From assembly GCA_965226495.1 (NCBI GenBank), contig OZ245365.1, positions 3,267,516 to 3,331,515 on the forward strand: 64,000 nt of DNA. Direction: 5' to 3'. The translations under genes and the position numbers were made by a program. The notes under the pieces were generated by a model. That model ran no database searches. It saw only the letters and a program-made list of their open reading frames with translations, and was not told the DNA's origin. Origin of the DNA: Candidatus Marinacidobacterales bacterium. Lineage in GTDB: Bacteria; Acidobacteriota; Vicinamibacteria; Marinacidobacterales; DATDRI01. This document shows, one piece after another, positions 12,793 to 43,293 of the stretch; the first letter of the stretch is position 1; each line of letters begins with the position of its first letter.

Positions 12793-13524
12793 ATGTCGCG
12801 AACCGCCGCCGCCCTCATCATCGGGAACGAGCTCCTCGGCGGCAAAATCCAGGAAAGCAACCTCCGCCAGCTCGCCCAGCTCTTGCGGCAACTCGGCATC
12901 AGCCTGAACCGTACCGTGATCGTGGCGGACGATGTAGCAACCATATCGCAAGAAGTCGCGGCGCTGTCTTCGGCCCATGACTTCCTCTTCACGAGCGGCG
13001 GAGTCGGCCCAACCCACGACGACGTCACGATGGAGGGAGTCGCTTCCGCCTTCGGCGTGCCGGTGGTGACCGATCCCGTCCTCGAAGAGAAGCTGCGTCT
13101 GCATTTCGGAGACAGTATCAACGAGAACCATCTCCGCTTGGCTCTGGTACCGCGAGGCACGCTTTTACTCTCCAACGCCAACTCACTTTGGCCGGCGACA
13201 GTCATGGCGAACGTGTGGATCCTGCCGGGAATCCCGGAAGTGTTTCAGAAGAAACTGCCGATCGTGCAAGAGCACTTGGGCGGAGACTTGCCGTTCCTAT
13301 CGCGTGCGGTCTACACCAAGCTCGATGAAGCCGATCTCGCTCCCCTGTTGAACGAAGTCGTTCGCAACCACCTGACAGTCGATATTGGCTCCTACCCGAC
13401 GTGGGCGGATCGGAAATACAGTACGAAGCTGACCTTCGATGGAAAGGACGGCGATGCCATTAGCCGGGCGGTAGATGAATTCGTAGCTTTGCTGCCCGAT
13501 GGCGAGCCCCAGTGGATCGAATAG
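12793..13524 (+). CDS. CinA-N/MoCF-type molybdopterin-binding domain protein
   Basis: AALIIGNELLGGKIQESN...FLFTSGGVGPTHDDVTME matches MoCF_biosynth/CinA N-terminal domain. Confidence 0.75.
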   Translation: MSRTAAALIIGNELLGGKIQESNLRQLAQLLRQLGISLNRTVIVADDVATISQEVAALSSAHDFLFTSGGVGPTHDDVTMEGVASAFGVPVVTDPVLEEKLRLHFGDSINENHLRLALVPRGTLLLSNANSLWPATVMANVWILPGIPEVFQKKLPIVQEHLGGDLPFLSRAVYTKLDEADLAPLLNEVVRNHLTVDIGSYPTWADRKYSTKLTFDGKDGDAISRAVDEFVALLPDGEPQWIE

Positions 13525-13549
13525 CCCCTCCGGGGGCGCGGAGGTACGT

Positions 13550-13885
13550 ATGAGGTTGATCGTATCCATTTCTTTTTTCCTTCTCTCTTCCACCACGCTG
13601 TGTGCCCAATTTTTCGAACCTGAAGTCTATGAGACGCGACGCGAGGCGGTGCTGGAGAATTTGGGCGAGGCGATCGCGATCGTTCCTGGTTACTCCGGGG
13701 CGCTGGGCATGGGTGTCTACCGACAGTCGGCCCACCTCATTTACTTGGCAGGTGTGGAAACTCCCAACGCCTATTTGGTCCTGGACGGTCGCTCGAAACG
13801 GTACTTCGTTGCCCCTCAGCCTGTCTCGCATTCACTGGACACCGGGCGCAAAAACGCTTTTCTACGAAGCGAAAGGCTCACATGA
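13550..13885 (+). pseudogene. truncated N-terminal fragment of a secreted Xaa-Pro aminopeptidase (AMP_N domain)
   Basis: Signal peptide then YRQSAHLIYLAGVETPNAYLVLDG, resembling FRQDSDFYYLTGFNEPEAVLVL of the PepP N-terminus. The ORF ends after about 110 aa where the transposase remnant begins. Confidence 0.45.
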
Positions 13886-14312
13886 CGACCCCCTCGCTTC
13901 TCATCCGCGAGGCGAGGCCCTCGATGTCTTCGAGTTCCTGGCCCGAGTCCTCACGCAAATCCCCAAGCCTCGGCAACACGGCGTGCACTACATGGGCGCC
14001 TACTCCTCGAGAGCGCGCGCCTTTCGAAAAAGGAAAAACCGCCGCCTGCAATCACTCACCAGCCAACAAAACCCCAAAGCCAACTCTGAGCCGAACCTGT
14101 CTCCCAAAAAGCGTGCCGCGCTCAGAAAAAGATGGGCACAGCTCATCAAGCTCATCAGGCGCGTTCATCAGACCGACCCTCTCCGGTGCGACTGCGGAGG
14201 CACCTATCGCGTCATCGCCTTCATCACCGAGCAGAAGGTGATTCGGAAAATCTTGGCTCATCTCGAAAAAAGAAGAAGAAAAAGCGACTCGCACCCGCCA
14301 CCCGAGCCCTAG
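13854..14312 (+). mobile_element. IS91-family (Y2-type, rolling-circle) transposase C-terminal remnant
   Basis: VFEFLARVLTQIPKPRQHGVHYMGAYSSRARA and C-terminal zinc-finger tail RCDCGGTYRVIAFITEQKVIRKILAHL are typical of the IS91 TnpA C-terminus. The catalytic N-terminal part is absent. Confidence 0.6.
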
Positions 14313-14604
14313 TCACTGGCTTCACACCACGCCACTTGTCCGTTACCCCGACACCAGACGGCCGGAGTGTTTCTTCAACACCTAACTCCCCCGGCGGGAG
14401 ACACTTCTCAACCGCCTTGCCCCGTTTGCTCGAGTTCTGCTACCCTCACCAGGACTCACTCGGACTGCACAGACCCATTCTGGTGGGGAAAACTCGCGGG
14501 CCGGCGCTCGGGAGCGTATGAATTTTCCTATCCTTTATCCTTTCTCCACGAACGCCCGTTAAGCGTCCTGCCCCCCTAATGTAGCGCGCCGTCCGAGCAA
14601 AAGT

Positions 14605-15963
14605 TCACTGGCGCTCGCTCACTCCGGTTGCCTCAATCGGTAGGGTAATTGTGAATTCGGTGCCCTTTCCCACCTGGCTGGCTACTTCTATCTGGCCACG
14701 GTGTTTGTGCACAATGTGCCGAGCGGCCGTTAAGCCCAGGTTCGCTCCGACTCTAGAACCTTGGGATCGAAAGCCCAAATCGAAGAGGGTCCTCGCGTCT
14801 TCCGGCGACATGCCTTTTCCGGTATCTAAGATCTTAGACGTAGAGGGTCCTCGCGTCTTCCGGCGAACACTCTTCTCCTTCGTGAAAGTTCTAATTGTGA
14901 CGCTGCCCCGCCATTCAACCGCCTGTATGGCAGTCATCAGTAAAGCCATGAAGACTTGGTTGAGCTCGCCGTGGTTACCATGAATCTCCGGAATACAGCC
15001 ATACTCTTTTACCAAACTTATTCCCTCCTTAATTTCGTTTTGAATTAAGGTTAGGGTACTTTCAATTCCTTCGTGAATGTTGGCCTTCTGGAATTCGCCT
15101 TCGTCCAATCTAGTAAAACTCTTCAAACTCTTTGCTATTCTGGCGATTCTGTCACTGGCAGATGAAGAAGTCTGACTATTTTCTTGGAGAATTCTAAGGC
15201 ACTCTTGATAATCACGACTATTCTTGACTTCAGCAGGCGTTTCGCTATTTTCCAAAATCTGCTCCAACCTAGCGACAGAACGAATTAACACGTCCGCATT
15301 ACCCTTAATCACGCCAATAGGCGTATTGATTTCGTGAACAATGCCTGCGGTAAGCTGTCCGAGGGCCGCCATCTTCTCAGATTGAACCAATTGAGCCTGG
15401 GCAGTTTGTAACTCGCTCTCCACTCGCTTGCGCTCCAGTTCAGCGGTGGCTCGTGCAGCGAAGATTTTGAAAATCGACAGGTCACGATGTTCACCAGTCA
15501 TGGGCTTATCATCTAACGTGGCCAAGTGGCCTAGCACATCGCCCGAAGAGTCGACTAGTGGTATCGCCAGATAGCTCTCCGCACCTAATTCGACGAGTGC
15601 TTCATCCTCCGGAAAAGCAGATTGCACATTTTCAGCATAGCGACAAATCTCGCCGCGCAACACTTTCTCGCAGGGTGTTCCAGCAAGATTGTAGCCATAG
15701 TTGTCCATAAAGCTATGGTCTTTCCAAAAGGCCAGTGTTCTGACTCTGGTTTTCACCTCCGTAAACTCGGAAATGAAGGCATAGCGTACGTGAAGCGCGC
15801 AGGCAAGATTTCGGACAAGCGAACGAAAAAAATCATCGCCCGTCAATGGAGCTGTACCTTCAATGATCGTGCGGAATATGTCATCCCGACTTGCTTGGGT
15901 TCTCTGCATCGCTGTCGGGCCCACAACACTCGATCCAAAGGACTGACTGACGCAATAGCTCAT
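14605..15963 (-). CDS. soluble GAF-domain sensor histidine kinase
   Basis: N-terminal GAF. HisKA block VHEINTPIGVIKGNADVL. HATPase_c with DTGKGMSPED, GLGFRS and GANLGLTAARHIV. Its start overlaps the upstream sigma stop (ATGA). Confidence 0.85.
   Translation of the reverse strand: MSYCVSQSFGSSVVGPTAMQRTQASRDDIFRTIIEGTAPLTGDDFFRSLVRNLACALHVRYAFISEFTEVKTRVRTLAFWKDHSFMDNYGYNLAGTPCEKVLRGEICRYAENVQSAFPEDEALVELGAESYLAIPLVDSSGDVLGHLATLDDKPMTGEHRDLSIFKIFAARATAELERKRVESELQTAQAQLVQSEKMAALGQLTAGIVHEINTPIGVIKGNADVLIRSVARLEQILENSETPAEVKNSRDYQECLRILQENSQTSSSASDRIARIAKSLKSFTRLDEGEFQKANIHEGIESTLTLIQNEIKEGISLVKEYGCIPEIHGNHGELNQVFMALLMTAIQAVEWRGSVTIRTFTKEKSVRRKTRGPSTSKILDTGKGMSPEDARTLFDLGFRSQGSRVGANLGLTAARHIVHKHRGQIEVASQVGKGTEFTITLPIEATGVSERQ
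15918..15963 (-). repeat. 46-nt sequence spanning the kinase start codon; copy A of a dispersed direct repeat
   Basis: 41 of 46 nt identical to 18171..18216 in the same orientation. Confidence 0.85.
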
Positions 15964-16811
15964 TGTAAGCTCCTTCTTCTAACGTCGTTTCTCAGAGAGT
16001 TTCGATCCGCCGTTCTAGGTTTCGGTGCCAACCGAGCCCGAGAGCCTCGGGGTCCTCGCGGGAGACAAGGTTGCTCGCTTGCGACGCGCAGCTTTGCTGG
16101 CCCATCTGTCTCTTGATAGCGCTCGAGCGCGTTTCGAACCTTCGTGCGTCCCCGGTGGAGCAACACTTTTTGATTGGCCTCGGTCAGTCCAAGTACTTGA
16201 CAGACCTCTTCCGCGGACCAGCCCTCGATATCCCGCAGGGTGACGACCTCGGCTTGTCGCGGGGGCATCGACTGAAGTTCCTTCCGGATCATCGTGATCG
16301 TTTCTGTCGACAAGAGACGATCTTCGGGCGTCTGTCTCCATCGGCGAGGCGGGGACATCCAGGCGTGTCGATCGTCTGAGAATCGCTCGGCTGCCGCCGC
16401 AAGATTGTCGGCAGGGTTCTCGATTTCACTCAGGGACGAAAACGGGACCGTCCGTCGTTCCCTCTTGGCTCTCGTTCGCGCGACATTCATGAGAATCGAG
16501 AAGATCCAAGTTTTGAGTGAAGAGCGACCCTCGAAGCGCTCCAGGCCTCGAATCGCCGCGAGCCAAGTCTCCTGAACTACCTCTTCCGCCATCTCTCGAT
16601 CAGAAAGGACCGATCTCGCGAGGCCAAGCATGGACGACGAGAGCCGCTCGAGCAAGACCTCGAACGCCCTCTCGTTGCCGGCCCGGAGTGCCTCTATGAA
16701 GTCCTTCTCTTGATGGTATCCGTCGGCGCTCTGCCCCCGCTGGAGAGGCCACAGGATGGTGGTCGGGCTCGTTGCAACCGTTTCCATTTGCTGGGTCATG
16801 TGCTGGGTCAT
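15960..16811 (-). CDS. ECF-type sigma-70 family sigma factor with a C-terminal extension of about 50 aa
   Basis: Region 2 (VQETWLAAIRGLERFEGRSSLKTWIFSILMNVA) and region 4 (EVVTLRDIEGWSAEEVCQVLGLTEANQKVLLHRGRTKVRNAL). Probable start MTQHMTQQME. Confidence 0.85.
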   Translation of the reverse strand: MTQHMTQQMETVATSPTTILWPLQRGQSADGYHQEKDFIEALRAGNERAFEVLLERLSSSMLGLARSVLSDREMAEEVVQETWLAAIRGLERFEGRSSLKTWIFSILMNVARTRAKRERRTVPFSSLSEIENPADNLAAAAERFSDDRHAWMSPPRRWRQTPEDRLLSTETITMIRKELQSMPPRQAEVVTLRDIEGWSAEEVCQVLGLTEANQKVLLHRGRTKVRNALERYQETDGPAKLRVASEQPCLPRGPRGSRARLAPKPRTADRNSLRNDVRRRSLQ

Positions 16812-16965
16812 GGAATTTCTCCTTTCCTGGAAAGCAATTTGCCAGTGGCCCCTCTGGAACACCATGCCGAGCAGATCACGGGTGCGTCAAAGCGTCTTCA
16901 CGATGCAAATAATTGATTCTTAAAGAGTTGGTGAGTTGGATCACGCAGAAAAGGGTGGGTTGCCC

Positions 16966-17000
16966 CAAGGAAAAAGGTCCCGCGCCTTTCGGCGGGGACC
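16966..17000 (-). terminator. putative intrinsic terminator downstream of the cytochrome P460 gene
   Basis: GC-rich hairpin ggtcccgcgcc/tttc/ggcggggacc. It is followed on the minus strand by CCUUUUUCC. Confidence 0.5.
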
Positions 17001-17025
17001 TCGAGGATGAGCGCCAAACCCTAAG

Positions 17026-18231
17026 CTATTTGGGCGGATACTCCGTCAAGACAAAGTCCTTGCCCGTGGAGTGGCAGCCGGAGCAGAGGGGAAGGCCGTT
17101 GCCAACCCCGACAATGTCACTGCTGTCTTCCGTGTTGGTCGTTTCGTACCAGAACCAACCCTGCCCTTGAGCGCTGTCTTCTTGGGTCTTGACCATCACC
17201 GCCCAGCCGAGAAGCTCGGAACCATCCTCGCTGTACATTTCCTTCACGATCGATGAGCCGGCCGGATGCGACGCATTTCCTGCCGCGAGGGAAGCGTCGA
17301 TCTTGGCATCCAAGTAGACGCGAACCGGCCAGCTGAACTTGGCATGGGGTCCTCGGGAAGCGTGTTTCTCAGATTCTTGGCTCTCGAATGACCTGTATGA
17401 GCCAGCTTTGAGGAATTCGTGAAGCCTTTGGGCTTCGGTGGGCACGACCGAGTCCACGGTAGGTGTATCGGCTGTCGCTTTCATGGCCGACTCGGACGCG
17501 CCGAGCATCGTATCCGCCATGCGATCGTACGACTCGTCGCCGCTTCGCATCGCCGCGCCGCTGGGAGACGCTGAGGAAGGAGAGCCCAGAGAGCTCTGCC
17601 GCGGCCCCTTTGCGGCGCGCAGCACCGGATAGTACTGGGTAAAGACCCCATTATCCGCGGCAGCCGCTTCGTGGCAGGAGCTACATGCCGCGGCTGGGAA
17701 TTTCTCTGCGGTGTCCGCAAGCGGATAGCTATGGCCGAAGCTGAAGTAAGCCCAGTTCCCTGGCTCGTCGGGAAAACGGTTCGAGTCCTTGACAGCGGCC
17801 TCCAAACCGATGAACTCGCCCATGAAGTAGCCTCTACCGCTAGCGGCCGCCTTCGAGCCCACGCTGACGAGCTCCTTGACCAGGACTGTCCCCTCCCGGA
17901 AATTTCCGGTTTCCATGTAGTGGTCGTAGCTCTCGGGATCGATATAGACGTTGTGGAAGTCCGGGAACGGCGCTTCGGGCGGATTCATGTCGTTGGGTGT
18001 CAGCGGCGTTCCGATGTACACCCACGTCCGGTAACCCGTGGGCCGGATGAGCCAACCCTGGCCATCGAAGTGGACCGGCGTTTCCTCCTGCGGTGGCTCG
18101 GCCGTCGCAAAGAGAGCAGGACTGAGGATGTAGCTCGATGCGAGAACCGTCAGCCCCATAACAACGGCCAGGCCCACAACCCTCGATCCAAAGGACTGAA
18201 TGACGCGATACTTCATTTGCATTTCGTTCAT
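17026..18231 (-). CDS. tandem two-domain cytochrome P460-family haem protein, secreted
   Basis: Two repeats of the P460 pattern: G(T/S)VLVKE...GNWAYFSF...CSSCHEAAAADNGVFTQYYP and IVKEMY...GWFWYET...CSGCHSTGKDFVLTEYP. N-terminal signal/TM. The alternative start MKYRV lies at 18216. Confidence 0.75.
   Translation of the reverse strand: MNEMQMKYRVIQSFGSRVVGLAVVMGLTVLASSYILSPALFATAEPPQEETPVHFDGQGWLIRPTGYRTWVYIGTPLTPNDMNPPEAPFPDFHNVYIDPESYDHYMETGNFREGTVLVKELVSVGSKAAASGRGYFMGEFIGLEAAVKDSNRFPDEPGNWAYFSFGHSYPLADTAEKFPAAACSSCHEAAAADNGVFTQYYPVLRAAKGPRQSSLGSPSSASPSGAAMRSGDESYDRMADTMLGASESAMKATADTPTVDSVVPTEAQRLHEFLKAGSYRSFESQESEKHASRGPHAKFSWPVRVYLDAKIDASLAAGNASHPAGSSIVKEMYSEDGSELLGWAVMVKTQEDSAQGQGWFWYETTNTEDSSDIVGVGNGLPLCSGCHSTGKDFVLTEYPPK
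18171..18216 (-). repeat. 46-nt sequence spanning the P460 start codon; copy B of the dispersed direct repeat
   Basis: 41 of 46 nt identical to 15918..15963. Confidence 0.85.
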
Positions 18232-18349
18232 ACAGATACAGTCTCCCGCTGCAGATTTCCGTTACGCTGTTCGGTCGGAATCCGTGTAACGAAAAGGCAG
18301 GGACGGAAGACTTGTCATAGTGCCGGAACTGATCCCTTCGGAATACTCG

Positions 18350-18598
18350 ATGGCGCCTGACGCACTCACTTGCCGGGAGCTCGCAGAGCTCCTCACCGAC
18401 TACCTAGAGGAATCGCTTCCCGCTCCCCAGCGGAAACGGTTCGAAGCGCACCTACGCAATTGCAAGAGTTGTCAGGACGACCTGGAGGAAATGCGGGCAA
18501 CGTTGATTGCCCTGAGGCGTCTACCCAGGGAGTCTCTAAAACTGGCGACGAAGCACAGGCTGCTTCGGGCATTCAGAAGATGTACTCAACGGCATTAG
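18350..18598 (+). CDS. small zinc-finger (ZAS-like) anti-sigma-factor-like protein
   Basis: 82 aa with a HLRNCKSCQDDLEE HxxxCxxC motif typical of ZAS anti-sigma N-domains. Divergent from the P460 gene. Confidence 0.5.
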   Translation: MAPDALTCRELAELLTDYLEESLPAPQRKRFEAHLRNCKSCQDDLEEMRATLIALRRLPRESLKLATKHRLLRAFRRCTQRH

Positions 18599-18673
18599 CT
18601 GTTCGACAACATCTACGTTGACACCCAGCGGACAAATCGAACTTAGGAGATGGGAAGAAAACTGCCCGGTTCG

Positions 18674-18703
18674 TTGCGTGACGTCTCGAGCGAACACTAT
18701 AAT
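18674..18703 (+). promoter_or_regulatory. putative sigma-70 promoter for the CadC-like regulator
   Basis: TTGCGT-N18-TATAAT, 23 nt upstream of the 18727 start. Confidence 0.35.
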
Positions 18704-18726
18704 CAGCTCGAAATCCGGGCCAGGCC

Positions 18727-20601
18727 ATGTCGACGTTTCAATCGTCCAACTCCATCCGATTTGGGAACTTTGAAGTCGATCCCCGCGCTGGAGAGCTAAG
18801 GAAGAACGGACGGCCGGTTAAGCTCCAGGAACAACCCCTCCAGCTCTTGCTCTTGCTTCTTGAGCATCCTGGCGAAGTCGTAACCCAGGAAGAAGCGCGA
18901 AATACTCTCTGGAGAGAGGATACTTTCGTCGACTTTGAACATGGTCTCGGCGCCGCACTGAACCGTTTGCGCGCCGCCCTGGGTGACTCCGCGAGTAATC
19001 CTCGTTTCATCGAAACGCTGCCTCGCCACGGATATCGGTTCATCGCGCCCGTAGCGGCAGGCTCGCCGAACGAACCGGAATCCGTGGCGGTGAGTCCGCC
19101 GACGAAACCTGTCGCCTTTAGATATGGCGGCTGGGTGGTCGCTTTCGGGGCGTTGATGCTCTCGATCTATCTGCTGAGAGAGCGTGTTCCGGCACCAACA
19201 AGCGCCGGCGCGGACACGAATATGCTCGTCGTGCTTCCCTTCGACAACTTGAGCGGCGACCCGGAGCAAGAGTATTTCAGCGACGGCCTGACCGAGGAGA
19301 TCATCACCCACGTGGGCCAACTTAGCTTTGAACGACTCGGCGTCATTGCCCGCACGTCGAGCATGACATACAAGAACACGACACAGACGATCGAGCAGAT
19401 AGGGCAGGATCTCGGCGTGAACTACGTGCTCGAGGGAAGTGTGCGGCGTGAGGGCGGACGCGTCCGGATTACCGCCCAGCTCATCTCCGTGAGCGATCAA
19501 ACCCATGTTTGGGCAGAGAGCTACGACCGCGAGCTCCAAGGGATTCTTGCCTTGCAAAGCGACGTTTCCCGGCAGGTCGCCAAGGCCGTGGCCGGCGAGC
19601 TTGGGCTTGCGAACGACCCGGTGGTTGCCCCAGAACTGGCGCACACGGACGCTTATGACGCGTACCTCAAAGGTCGTTTCTACTGGAACAAGCGCGATGC
19701 CCAGGGCTTCCAGAAAGCCATCGAGTACTTCCAAGAGGCCATCGACATCGACCCGCGTTTCGCGCCTGCATACGCGGGGCTGGCTGACTGCTACGCGCTG
19801 CTAAGCGTCTCCTTTGACCTGCTACCTCCGGGAGAGGCGCAGTCCAAAGCGAGGACGATGGCCAGAAAAGCACTGGAAATCGACCCCAACCTGGCCGAAG
19901 CCTATGCTTCCCTGGGACTCGTACGGCACGGTTACGATTGGGACTGGGCGGGCGCATCCGAAGCGTTCCAGCGCGCCATCGAACTCAACCCAAGCTATGC
20001 GACCGCATACCACTGGCACGCACTTCATCTGGCAGGCATGGGTCGGTTCGAGCAAGCGCTCGATGAAATGAGACGAGCCCGGGCTCTGGATCCTCTCTCT
20101 CTGATCATCAACACTGACCTAGGGAGGGTGCTCTATACCGCGCGCCGGTACGACGAGGCCACAAAACAGTTGCAAGAAACCCTGGGTTTGGACCCGCACT
20201 TCGTGCCGGCGCGCATCTGGCTGTCTAGCGTATACCTGCAGAGAAAAATGTTCGAAGAGGCCATCGAAGTCTCCCGGACGGTAGCTACCATCGAGAACGG
20301 TGGACCGACGGCACTCGCCCTGCTCGGCGCCAGTTATGCCGCGGCGGGAAAGACAACCGACGCCATGGAAATTCTCCAGACGCTAAAACAGTTGTCCAAC
20401 CAGCGCCACGTGTCACCAGCAAGCATCGCGCTCGTGTACGCGAACCTTGGCGACCCCGATGAGGCGTTTGCCTGGCTGGAGAAGGCTTTCGGGCAACGTT
20501 CCGGCTCCCTCCGACTGCTCAAGGTGGATCCCGTATTCGATCCCCTTCGCTCCGATCCGCGTTTTCAGGGTCTGCTTACACGCATGAACTTCCCGGAGTG
20601 A
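18727..20601 (+). CDS. CadC/OmpR-type winged-helix transcriptional regulator fused to a TM segment and TPR repeats
   Basis: N-terminal trans_reg_C-like segment (FEVDPRAGELRKNGRPVKLQEQPLQLLLLLLEHPGEVVT...LPRHGYRF). Hydrophobic segment. C-terminal TPR-like repeats. Confidence 0.8.
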   Translation: MSTFQSSNSIRFGNFEVDPRAGELRKNGRPVKLQEQPLQLLLLLLEHPGEVVTQEEARNTLWREDTFVDFEHGLGAALNRLRAALGDSASNPRFIETLPRHGYRFIAPVAAGSPNEPESVAVSPPTKPVAFRYGGWVVAFGALMLSIYLLRERVPAPTSAGADTNMLVVLPFDNLSGDPEQEYFSDGLTEEIITHVGQLSFERLGVIARTSSMTYKNTTQTIEQIGQDLGVNYVLEGSVRREGGRVRITAQLISVSDQTHVWAESYDRELQGILALQSDVSRQVAKAVAGELGLANDPVVAPELAHTDAYDAYLKGRFYWNKRDAQGFQKAIEYFQEAIDIDPRFAPAYAGLADCYALLSVSFDLLPPGEAQSKARTMARKALEIDPNLAEAYASLGLVRHGYDWDWAGASEAFQRAIELNPSYATAYHWHALHLAGMGRFEQALDEMRRARALDPLSLIINTDLGRVLYTARRYDEATKQLQETLGLDPHFVPARIWLSSVYLQRKMFEEAIEVSRTVATIENGGPTALALLGASYAAAGKTTDAMEILQTLKQLSNQRHVSPASIALVYANLGDPDEAFAWLEKAFGQRSGSLRLLKVDPVFDPLRSDPRFQGLLTRMNFPE

Positions 20602-21212: not shown

Positions 21213-21359
21213 AATCCTCCTTTTTAGGTTCGTGCCCTTCGGCGATCGTTCACCTGGGACAACGCACGTTCAGAGGCCTAGTCCATCTATGAGGCGTTTC
21301 GTTACAAGGTGAAACCTGGGATGTAACGTTTCAACCTACGGGAGGACTATTTCTATGCC

Positions 21360-41580: not shown

Positions 41581-43293
41581 CTACGCAGATAGCGTCGACT
41601 CGAACTGGCGAAGCTTGCGGTGTAGAAAGACGTTCTCCAAAGCCATCCCTGCTTGCGCCAGGAAGAGCTCGACACCTCTCAGTTTTCCGAGAGGCTTTCC
41701 GGATACTGGGTTGTCACCGTAGAGGATGGTCAAGACCTCCCGGTTGTTGAGCATGGGTAGCAAAGCGATCTCTTGGGCGCGGCCGCGGTCAATGACCGCG
41801 TAGAGAGAATCTTGTAGCCCGTCCACGTCGGGTCCTATCCGCAACGCCTTGCGAGTCAGAACCACTTGTGCCAGGCACTGGACTTTTTCCACGTCCAGGG
41901 CGATTTGCTTAGCCACCTCGTTGTTCACTCTGCCACCTCGAGTGAGCCCGAACCCGGCCACGTCCAGGGCGATTTGCTTAGCCACCTCGTTGTTCACTCT
42001 GCCACCTCGAGTGAGCCCGAACCCGGCCATGCCGGTGGCTTTGCCTTTTTTTATCATGAACAAGATGCTCCTCTCGAAAAACTTGGATGCTACGTGGAGC
42101 ACCATGCGAGATACGTCCAAAGAGCGCTCCGGGTTCGCGAACTGTTCAGTCATGGACGCGAGAAAGTCCAGCAACAGGGAGTCGTCCTCACGCTCGACGT
42201 CGGTAACCTCTTTGTCCGCTGGGCCCGATGGGTTGATCGTCAGATCGGTGAGGTGGCGCATAAGGAGAATCGAGAACGTCTTCAGATCGGCTCGGTACTC
42301 GTCTTGATCGAGTTTGGAAATCGTCGGCTTGAACGCAACTTTACGAATACCCAGCTCCTTTGCTCTTTCGCGTGCCTTTTCGGGGAGTCGATCTGTCATC
42401 AAGAGAATGGGTAATTCCAATCTGCTGTTTCTCAGTCTCCGCACCAGCTCGAAGCCGCCATAAAAACTCTTGCCGTTTGCGCTCGGCATGCGGAGATCGG
42501 AGGCGAGCACGACCCGCTCGCCGGCAGTCAGAAGTCTACGAACCAACTCCTCTCCCGCGTCAGGACTGGAAGCGATCTCGACGCGCAAACGCCGCGCCCG
42601 AAGCTCCTCACCTACGATGTCTGTCACCTCGGCTTCATCGTCCACCAGGACGATAACCACCTCAGACTGCGTTTGGGAGGGTGGTTCGGCCGGTTGGGCA
42701 TCTGGCGTCGGTTCTGCCGAGGAGACGGGCTGAGCCGATTGAGTCGGTTGAGATTTTCGGGCGATCTCCGGCGGCACGGGAACCGGCTCCGGGGTGGTCT
42801 GTGAAGTCGGTCGTTTTTCGGCTGCCGATCGTGGGCCGGTGCCGACGAACGCAACCGCATCGGCACGGTCCTCGTCCATTTCCTTGGCCGCATCCAACAG
42901 CAGGTGCTGTGGGTCGAAGCCGTCGTGAGCCAGAAACGGCGCGACGTCGACGCCGCCCAGCGTGGCGGTGAGATCGTCGGTCAATCGAAACAGAAAGGCT
43001 CCCTCTCGCATCGTCGTCAGCTCGCGGAACGTGACCTCGACGTGCCGCCGAAGCAAGGCCAGGCGGTCCCCAGTGTGATCTTCGCCAGTGAGCTGTCGCA
43101 AGTAGCTCTGTGTGGACCAGGAATAGGCGCAGAGGACAAGCCCGTTCTTGAAAAGAATCGCGCCACGACCGAGGGGACCTTCGACACTCAGATGGCCCGT
43201 CTTCTTGGAAAAGGCGACGATTTGGAGGATATCGGGAAGGGGGAGATCTTCTAGCCTCCCCTTGAGACCCTCGTTCTCCCGGCCTTGCGTCAC
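41581..43293 (-). CDS. DUF4388 - receiver-like - GAF-like regulatory protein
   Basis: N-terminal LEDLPLPDILQIVAFSKKTGHLSVEG (DUF4388). Central REC-like segment VVIVLVDDE...DLRMP. C-terminal GAF-like end LFLAQAGMALENVFLHRKL. Confidence 0.6.
   Translation of the reverse strand: MTQGRENEGLKGRLEDLPLPDILQIVAFSKKTGHLSVEGPLGRGAILFKNGLVLCAYSWSTQSYLRQLTGEDHTGDRLALLRRHVEVTFRELTTMREGAFLFRLTDDLTATLGGVDVAPFLAHDGFDPQHLLLDAAKEMDEDRADAVAFVGTGPRSAAEKRPTSQTTPEPVPVPPEIARKSQPTQSAQPVSSAEPTPDAQPAEPPSQTQSEVVIVLVDDEAEVTDIVGEELRARRLRVEIASSPDAGEELVRRLLTAGERVVLASDLRMPSANGKSFYGGFELVRRLRNSRLELPILLMTDRLPEKARERAKELGIRKVAFKPTISKLDQDEYRADLKTFSILLMRHLTDLTINPSGPADKEVTDVEREDDSLLLDFLASMTEQFANPERSLDVSRMVLHVASKFFERSILFMIKKGKATGMAGFGLTRGGRVNNEVAKQIALDVAGFGLTRGGRVNNEVAKQIALDVEKVQCLAQVVLTRKALRIGPDVDGLQDSLYAVIDRGRAQEIALLPMLNNREVLTILYGDNPVSGKPLGKLRGVELFLAQAGMALENVFLHRKLRQFESTLSA
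41892..42029. repeat. perfect 69-bp tandem duplication (2 copies), in frame
   Basis: The 69-nt unit cgtccagggcgatttgcttagccacctcgttgttcactctgccacctcgagtgagcccgaacccggcca occurs twice back to back. It encodes AGFGLTRGGRVNNEVAKQIALDV twice. Confidence 0.9.

Follow-up and report, generated by a model that had tools for sequence, protein, structure and literature searches.

In the stretch of Candidatus Marinacidobacterales DNA analysed here (64,000 nucleotides, hereafter the window), a cytochrome P460 gene and a histidine kinase gene lie on either side of an ECF sigma factor gene and begin almost identically. We asked why two functionally unrelated genes should share a start. The original prediction had described two 46-nt gene starts of 89% identity, and a repeat search of the window bears out both their positions and their letters: 15918-15964 and 18171-18217, read on the minus strand, agree at 42 of 47 nt (89%), or at 41 of 46 from the ATG onward. 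Each copy starts at an in-frame ATG, yielding the N-termini MSYCVSQSFGSSVVGP and MKYRVIQSFGSRVVGL, and an exact core of 18 nt, TCAGTCCTTTGGATCGAG, straddles codons 6-12 of both genes. When both strands of the 64-kb window were searched with up to three mismatches tolerated, the core had these two sites only. The binomial probability of at least 42 matches in 47 is 2e-20, which corresponds to about 4e-11 pairs expected by chance in 64 kb. The copy at the kinase start recurs in other assemblies, namely at loci L001 (99.8% identity), L084 and L085 and in proteins P0241-P0245, and because these assemblies are independent it is not an assembly artefact. As argued below, the shared 46 nt very probably belong to a longer stretch, of about 100 nt, copied from the P460 initiation region, which would make the kinase gene start a composite produced by local duplication. 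The features of the locus are collected in Table 1.

Table 1. Features of the P460-sigma-kinase locus, in window coordinates.
Feature	Position	Strand	Evidence
Soluble GAF-like/HisKA/HATPase_c histidine kinase gene with 18-residue chimeric N-terminal extension	14605..15963	-	Pfam HisKA + HATPase_c
Templated insertion of 23+1 nt, strain-specific, within the ATPase domain of the kinase; source 58 nt downstream	14839..14862	-	repeat search
Met19, probable ancestral kinase start codon	15907..15909	-	alignment of 11 homologous GAF-type kinases
V''+R', copied P460 translation-initiation region before the kinase	15914..16010	-	leader and coding matches to P460
ECF sigma factor gene	15960..16811	-	Pfam Sigma70_r2 + r4_2; start 16811 by homology to L002/L082 sigma genes
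Intrinsic-terminator-like hairpin and T-run, after P460	16979..16996	-	terminator search
Cytochrome P460 family gene, two-domain	17026..18216	-	Pfam PF16694, 2e-33
R, native P460 5' end: ATG 18216 and codons 1-17 (signal-peptide n-region and start of h-region)	18164..18216	-	orthologues
U, conserved promoter-like block directly adjoining the P460 ATG	18217..18278	-	89% identity to L002 9827-9887
zf-HC2 anti-sigma factor gene, divergent from P460	18320..18598	+	Pfam PF13490, 2e-10

To which of the two genes does the segment belong? Orthologues of the window P460 are 79% (P0123, P0124) or at least 90% (P0250, P0253) identical to it. Gene callers start the window gene at an upstream in-frame ATG, 18231; the start homologous to that of the relatives is probably 18216. 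The segment sits at the P460 start codon in L002, L084, L085 and L086-L091, and partly in L082. The encoded N-terminus is MKRRVIPSFGSRVVGL in L002 and P0123, MSYHVRQSVGSRVLGPT in L084 and L085 (longer form MSYHVRQSVGSRV(L/V)GPT), and MKPYRVHQSS in L082. On the kinase side, homologues at 43-56% identity lack the segment. Eleven homologous kinases in an alignment begin within 1-3 residues of Met19, without it, and P0018 opens at the Met19-equivalent place with MQKTQKP. Comparative genomics of both genes, one of the checks that the original prediction had named, thus separates them cleanly, P460 orthologues carrying the segment and kinase homologues not. The comparison shows P460 to be the native home of the segment, and the kinase family to have had none of its own.

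The segment also looks at home in the P460 protein. There it reads like the start of a Sec-type signal peptide, with a basic n-region (K2, R4, R12) followed by the hydrophobic core VVGLAVVMGLTVLA. In the kinase the copy breaks off ahead of the h-region, and none of the three basic residues is left (K2S, R4C, R12S); judged by inspection, it is therefore no signal peptide. The original prediction, which took the P460 N-terminus for a signal-peptide n-region and noted that no hydrophobic core follows in the kinase, was right on both counts by inspection. Strains still differ within the borrowed kinase peptide (Y3H, V13A).

Similarity between the two gene starts is not confined to coding DNA. The region upstream of the kinase matches the P460 leader of L082 at 36 of 42 positions (z=12.8; none of 500 shuffles as good), and a weaker alignment to the same leader reaches about -92, near window position 16055, placing the left boundary of the copy between -47 and -92. 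The SD block of the kinase is common to the P460 leader of L002 (GAAGGAGCTT). Downstream of the ATG, the coding part of the copy agrees with the window P460 at 44 of 53 nt and matches the L084 P460 up to GGGCCCGAC. The copied region consists of a leader from about -47, the SD GAAGGAG (15976-15970), the ATG (15963-15961) and 50 nt of coding sequence. Homology is continuous across non-coding and coding DNA from about -47 to +50 and ends at a discrete in-frame junction, 4 nt upstream of the Met19 ATG and in frame with it. The earlier impression that identity stops at the ATG holds between the two copies in the window but not against the P460 leaders of relatives, where homology continues for at least 45 nt further upstream. 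On the 3' side, measured against the L084 and L085 P460 alleles, the copy ends at +50 (window 15914), slightly past the +46 of the original prediction.

The apparent stop at the ATG arises because the window P460 gene lost its own leader. In the window the conserved block U abuts the P460 ATG with no spacer, whereas 59 nt including an SD separate the two in L084 and L085 and 113 nt separate them in L002, where the counterpart of U lies 114-174 nt upstream of the ATG. The comparison shows that the loss of the leader from the window P460 came at a later time. Inside U is a bipartite motif, GTAACGGAAA-N10-GAGACT (18265-18240), for which conservation suggests a promoter role; it is distinct from the repeat under study. 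The same motif also occurs upstream of a globin gene. As in other ECF sigma/zf-HC2 modules, sigma, zf-HC2 anti-sigma and P460 genes are neighbours in the window and in L005 and L009, in which sigma and anti-sigma genes lie next to P460 relatives of at most 61% identity in species-representative genomes. A literature search for a connection of cytochrome P460 with ECF sigma factors turned up a single, incidental review.

The strong SD GAAGGAG stands 6 nt upstream of ATG 15963, and just before Met19 there is no SD-like GGAGG or GAGG run. SD strength and gene callers both predict ATG 15963, not Met19, as the start in use. On its 5' side the copy reaches into the end of the sigma gene. Sigma homology to relatives stops near residue 254 (window position about 16124), and the unconserved 3' tail beyond it, the last ~45 residues, is a read-through of the copied former P460 leader. 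A region downstream of sigma in L002 that resembled the kinase leader by eye was rejected as its homologue, shuffle tests giving z=-0.1 and 1.9.

In the window, L001 and L084, the stop of sigma and the start of the kinase share nucleotides (ATGA); in L085 the sigma tail carries a frameshift and ends 30 nt short of the kinase. Because no terminator-like site was found between sigma and kinase, the kinase is predicted to be co-transcribed with sigma, and translational coupling may be expected as well. The arrangement recalls ATGA-coupled operon genes in its stop/start overlap and in the lack of an intervening terminator. Unlike in such operons, the overlap would be a by-product of read-through of the P460 leader, it is not conserved (L085), and coupling is a prediction.

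The kinase itself is compositionally foreign and dispensable. Its GC content is 0.50, against 0.59-0.60 in most neighbouring genes, and its GC3 is 0.52, against 0.64-0.74; the gene is IS-disrupted in L084 and survives only as a fragment in L002. The copy is present in every assembly in which sigma and kinase are adjacent (window, L001, L084 and L085), and absent from seven L002-type loci, which hold a kinase fragment only, and from L083, where such a kinase does not occur. P460 and sigma keep their synteny in every relative, also where the segment is present only once. The L002-type kinase fragment sits upstream of P460 rather than downstream of sigma, so additional rearrangements are needed under any model.

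These observations point to a local rearrangement as the origin of the copy. Other short ectopic or tandem copies in the kinase gene fit such an origin: the 23+1 nt insertion of Table 1, which neither L001 nor the 444-aa proteins P0241, P0263 and P0265 possess, and a duplication of ~159 nt in the gene of P0243. Most likely, the leader-P460-sigma unit was first duplicated in tandem, and a deletion then brought P460 codon 17 next to kinase position -4; alternatively, template switching could have inserted the copy in a single templated step. Either way, the rearrangement would have removed the kinase's own ribosome-binding site, with the consequence that translation would proceed from the P460-derived SD and ATG and yield a protein 18 residues longer. 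The borrowed peptide is best seen as a passenger that may have no function, given that its basic residues are lost and strains still differ in it. The loci examined contain no intermediate in which the P460 body or the sigma gene is present twice, and the exact path cannot be reconstructed. The identity of the donor allele is likewise blurred by allele exchange or gene conversion, for the 5' half of P460 is a mosaic recombined between strains (82% versus 96% identity).

The original prediction had offered a recombination junction, a duplicated translation-initiation region or an sRNA/riboregulator target as explanations. Comparative data bear out the first two; the third drew no support. A post-transcriptional control element through which an sRNA, an RNA-binding protein or a riboregulator co-regulated P460 and kinase would fit the exact core over the same codons of both genes, the retention of that core as GTCC(T/G)TTGGATCGAG in the P460 genes of L002, L084 and L085, and the membership of both genes in one ECF-sigma neighbourhood. 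However, the P460 genes of L082 and L083 lack the conserved core, and between window and L084 the segment has changed more than the gene body, at 43/53 (81%) versus ~92%, the latter figure covering 18602-15500 and so including the anti-sigma gene, sigma and the 5' part of the kinase. In the window, P460 and kinase have neither leader nor SD in common, and relatives have disrupted or lost the kinase. Nor did RNA analysis of the two start sites, a check proposed with the original prediction, reveal an Rfam match or a stable or common fold. At E up to 1 across 14400-18800, Rfam gave no match at the segment and only a chance CRISPR-DR hit (E=0.89) elsewhere. Predicted folds of the two start regions are no more stable than those of shuffled sequences (z +0.2 to +0.9), P460 and kinase have no structure in common, and the 64-kb window holds no site complementary to the segment. 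An anti-SD hairpin, with TCCTT of the segment pairing with AAGGA of the SD, was considered and dropped, as predicted folds give no support for it. We regard a shared regulatory RNA element as very unlikely. Much the same applies to a bolder proposal, very improbable in our estimation, with two separate parts: that the copy has been kept as a portable control module, its first codons, around the 18-nt core, being the target of an sRNA or protein that makes kinase translation follow the conditions of P460 translation in the ECF-sigma regulon; and that an active template-switching repair makes new gene starts in this lineage, leaving the ectopic copies of 23+1, ~159 and ~100 nt.

Another alternative is mobile DNA. 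The two copies form direct repeats on either side of a 2.25-kb segment, and both active IS elements and IS fragments are common nearby (a Y2_Tnp fragment at 13602-14312 in the window; IS256, IS66 and IS3 in relatives), as might be expected if the segment were a dispersed repeat (REP, MITE or IS end) or a pair of att-like sites flanking a mobile P460-sigma cassette. Against a dispersed repeat, there are just two copies within the window, and the segment pattern had no match in 185,579 species-representative genomes, a collection that does not contain the source genome, or in 81 other loci examined. Both copies, moreover, sit in frame at start codons and form no hairpin, with fold z-scores of +0.5 and +0.9. 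A cassette fares no better: no integrase adjoins it, and P460-sigma is syntenic in all relatives, never variably present. This explanation is extremely improbable. A subtler possibility is that the N-termini are alike not through one old copying but through ongoing gene conversion between R and R', or through independent convergence. With the P460 alleles of L084/L085 the kinase copy has CCG-AC (Pro16-Thr17) in common, with those of the window and L002 it has Phe9 and Val14, a mosaic pattern compatible with conversion tracts, as is the recombinant 5' half of P460. But conversion presupposes an earlier duplication and would modify the main explanation rather than replace it, and convergence could not yield 42 of 47 identical nucleotides together with a homologous leader. 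Identical tracts between the two copies do not exceed 18 nt, and efficient homologous exchange usually needs longer ones. We consider this reading, too, very unlikely, and retain a single local duplication of the P460 initiation region as the preferred account.

Composite (chimeric) genes that arise by segmental duplication followed by deletion or fusion are a general phenomenon, surveyed in PMC6769587. The kinase resembles them in carrying an in-frame piece on an unrelated gene, in the retention of the donor copy, in the absence of the piece from recipient homologues and in its simple breakpoint. It differs in what was donated: no domain, only an initiation region with 16-17 codons of a signal-peptide n-region. 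The role of this piece is probably limited to providing an SD and an ATG in place of those that the recipient lost.

On this comparative evidence, the locus is another example of a composite gene start, of a known kind, and the repeat is an ordinary rearrangement scar, not a regulatory element. Like 5' ends on unrelated neighbouring genes may mimic a regulatory signal and yet be the scar of duplication and fusion, which calls for caution in reading them. For annotation, residues 1-18 of the kinase are to be treated as non-native, 18216 as the probable P460 start, and the last ~45 sigma residues as a former P460 leader. For the organism, the case shows how a horizontally acquired gene that has apparently lost its own ribosome-binding site can stay expressible through the initiation region of a neighbour, by which the kinase would join the operon of an ECF sigma factor.

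A repeat search of the window recovered the near-identical 5′ ends of the P460 and kinase genes, which share 42 of 47 positions over their first 46–47 nt, including an 18-nt exact core. Allowing up to three mismatches, no further site for the core or for the full segment occurs on either strand of the 64 kb, and such a pair is expected by chance only ~4e-11 times; the repeat reported in the original prediction is therefore confirmed. Two other repeats were seen in the window: a perfect 69-nt tandem duplication, which puts a 23-residue repeat (GFGLTRGGRVNNEVAKQIALDV) in frame within a 570-aa ORF, and a CTCTCC hexamer present in a different number of copies in the window and in the L001 assembly.

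Positions of the features discussed (window coordinates unless a relative's locus, L002, L083 or L084, is named)
Feature	Position	Strand	Remark
Two-domain cytochrome P460 gene	ATG 18216 (or in-frame 18231), stop 17026	minus	
ECF sigma gene	16811 to 15960	minus	
Soluble HisKA/HATPase_c histidine kinase gene	15963 to 14605	minus	
Copied unit	16010-15914		at least ~97 nt
Block U	18278-18217		conserved, promoter-like
Bipartite motif	18240-18265; 21280-21305	minus	also L002 near 9833 and 8755; L083 near 8533 and upstream of 5799
Direct repeat CGTGAT(G/C)	~16860-16910	minus	upstream of sigma
Trans_reg_C-TPR protein	18727-20601		neighbouring gene
23-nt templated insertion	14839-14862		source 14781-14808 (58 nt downstream); kinase ATPase domain
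Decayed region	~13500-14600		downstream of kinase
IS91-type Y2 transposase fragment	13602-14312	plus	in decayed region
Two IS256-type elements	L084 5391-8547		in L084 kinase
69-nt tandem duplication	41889-42026		
570-aa ORF	41581-43293	minus	
CTCTCC hexamer	~5135		

Comparison with relatives indicates that the segment is native to P460 and not to the kinase. The L002 P460 (P0123, 79% identical to the window's) begins with MKRRVIPSFGSRVVGL, the alleles of at least 90% identity in L084 and L085 begin with MSYHVRQSVGSRV(L/V)GPT, and in all three the segment runs on into the signal-peptide hydrophobic core. By contrast, none of the kinase homologues of 43–56% identity carries it, and all 11 that were aligned start within 1–3 residues of the window kinase's Met19, its probable ancestral start. 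Kinase residues 1–18 are thus an add-on. Only loci in which sigma and kinase are intact neighbours were found to carry a second copy.

The copy extends beyond the coding sequence. Identity had been described as ending at the ATG, which holds within the window; against the P460 genes of relatives, however, the sequence preceding the kinase start proves homologous to their leader. It matches the L082 leader at 36 of 42 positions from −45 to −4 (z = 12.8, a score reached by none of 500 shuffles), with a weaker alignment to about −92, and it shares the Shine-Dalgarno block GAAGGAGCTT with the L002 leader. The window's own P460 has lost this leader: block U directly adjoins its ATG, whereas in relatives a spacer of 59 nt (L084, L085) or 113 nt (L002), Shine-Dalgarno included, separates the two. 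On the 3′ side, similarity had been said to fade after about 16 codons, which is approximately right; the L084 and L085 P460 alleles place the end at +50 (GGGCCCGAC), 4 nt before the Met19 ATG and in the same frame. Leader match and 3′ end together set the minimum size of the copied unit, which constitutes a complete translation-initiation region.

Such an origin bears out the suggestion of a recombination junction or duplicated initiation region: the comparisons show a kinase start that is a chimeric, in-frame initiation region derived from P460, with kinase homologues lacking the segment. A shared riboregulator or sRNA target, also proposed originally, is not supported and is unlikely. We found no Rfam match to the segment, no stable or shared RNA fold at the two starts and no complementary site in the 64-kb window; L082 and L083 do not conserve the core, and the segment evolves faster than its surroundings (81% versus ~92% identity across 18602-15500, spanning anti-sigma, P460, sigma and the 5′ part of the kinase). 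A dispersed repeat, or a pair of att sites flanking a cassette, is rejected: the window holds just two copies, their position does not fit, there is no hairpin or recombinase, and synteny is conserved. Gene conversion between the two copies may have occurred and would merely modify the P460-derived origin. Two things point to conversion: the kinase copy is a mosaic, with Pro16-Thr17 as in L084/L085 and Phe9/Val14 as in the window and L002, and a recombination breakpoint lies within P460. Identity to L085 changes sharply inside that gene, from 82% over 18599-17689 to 96% over 17566-14543, a sign that strains have recombined here, with the breakpoint in the region encoding the P460 linker. Between strains, the 5′ half of P460 and the TPR regulator diverge at the level of separate species.

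A local rearrangement would have created the chimeric start, at the cost of the ribosome-binding site that the kinase originally had. One junction of the copy is of duplication type (sigma 3′ end/P460 leader) and the other of deletion type (P460 codon 17/kinase −4). Tandem duplication of a leader-P460-sigma unit followed by deletion, or one-step templated insertion through template switching, would fit this structure equally well. In keeping with such events, the kinase gene has acquired short ectopic or tandem copies more than once. The window strain alone carries a 23-nt insertion with 1-nt microhomologies at its junctions, followed after 6 nt by a compensating single-nucleotide insertion (KSVYVKILD to KSVRRKTRGPSTSKILD), absent from L001 and from other strains' 444-aa proteins; P0243, a protein from a 2.1 Mb contig of the same species cluster, has a ~159-nt internal duplication in which residues from ~33 to 75 are repeated and the linker is frame-shifted.

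On its 5′ side the copy supplies the final stretch of the sigma ORF, whose stop codon overlaps the new kinase ATG (as ATGA) in L001, L084 and the window. This tail lacks conservation: homology with relatives ends at about residue 254, and in L085 a frameshift caused by two 1-nt indels brings the stop 30 nt earlier. Downstream of P460 lies a terminator-like hairpin, with no counterpart found between sigma and kinase. The kinase would now be expressed from the sigma transcript through the borrowed Shine-Dalgarno and ATG. Upstream of sigma lies a conserved direct repeat, also present in L002 and L083 (spacing ~21 nt in the window and L002, ~10 nt in L083), to which a winged-helix regulator may bind, for instance the Trans_reg_C-TPR protein encoded nearby. 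Separately, a bipartite motif, GTAACG(A/G)AA-N10-11-G(G/A)GACT, precedes both the P460 and truncated-globin genes and is kept in relatives. It resembles an ECF-type promoter and suggests that the two genes form the regulon of the adjacent ECF sigma/zf-HC2 anti-sigma pair.

The borrowed peptide itself looks like a passenger: the differences from P460 over the first 16 codons, every one non-synonymous, remove all three basic residues, and the peptide still varies among close strains (Y3H, V13A).

The kinase is compositionally foreign (GC3 0.52 versus 0.64–0.74 in its neighbours) and adjoins a rearranged region with a Y2 transposase fragment; homology to L084 and L085 stops 62 nt past its stop codon. 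The decayed region there coincides exactly with the end of synteny to both loci, and its L001 counterpart contains a called AMP_N aminopeptidase fragment. The kinase is also dispensable in relatives. IS256-family transposase elements interrupt it in L084, a Ser/Thr kinase takes its place in L083, and seven L002-type loci retain only an internal fragment (~residues 165–275), which in these genomes lies upstream of P460. IS activity at the locus is very high; L002-type genomes (L086-L091 among the loci) carry IS66 in the sigma gene and IS4-type and IS3-type insertions around P460. The case is an ordinary rearrangement scar, if a well-documented one, giving a composite gene start.
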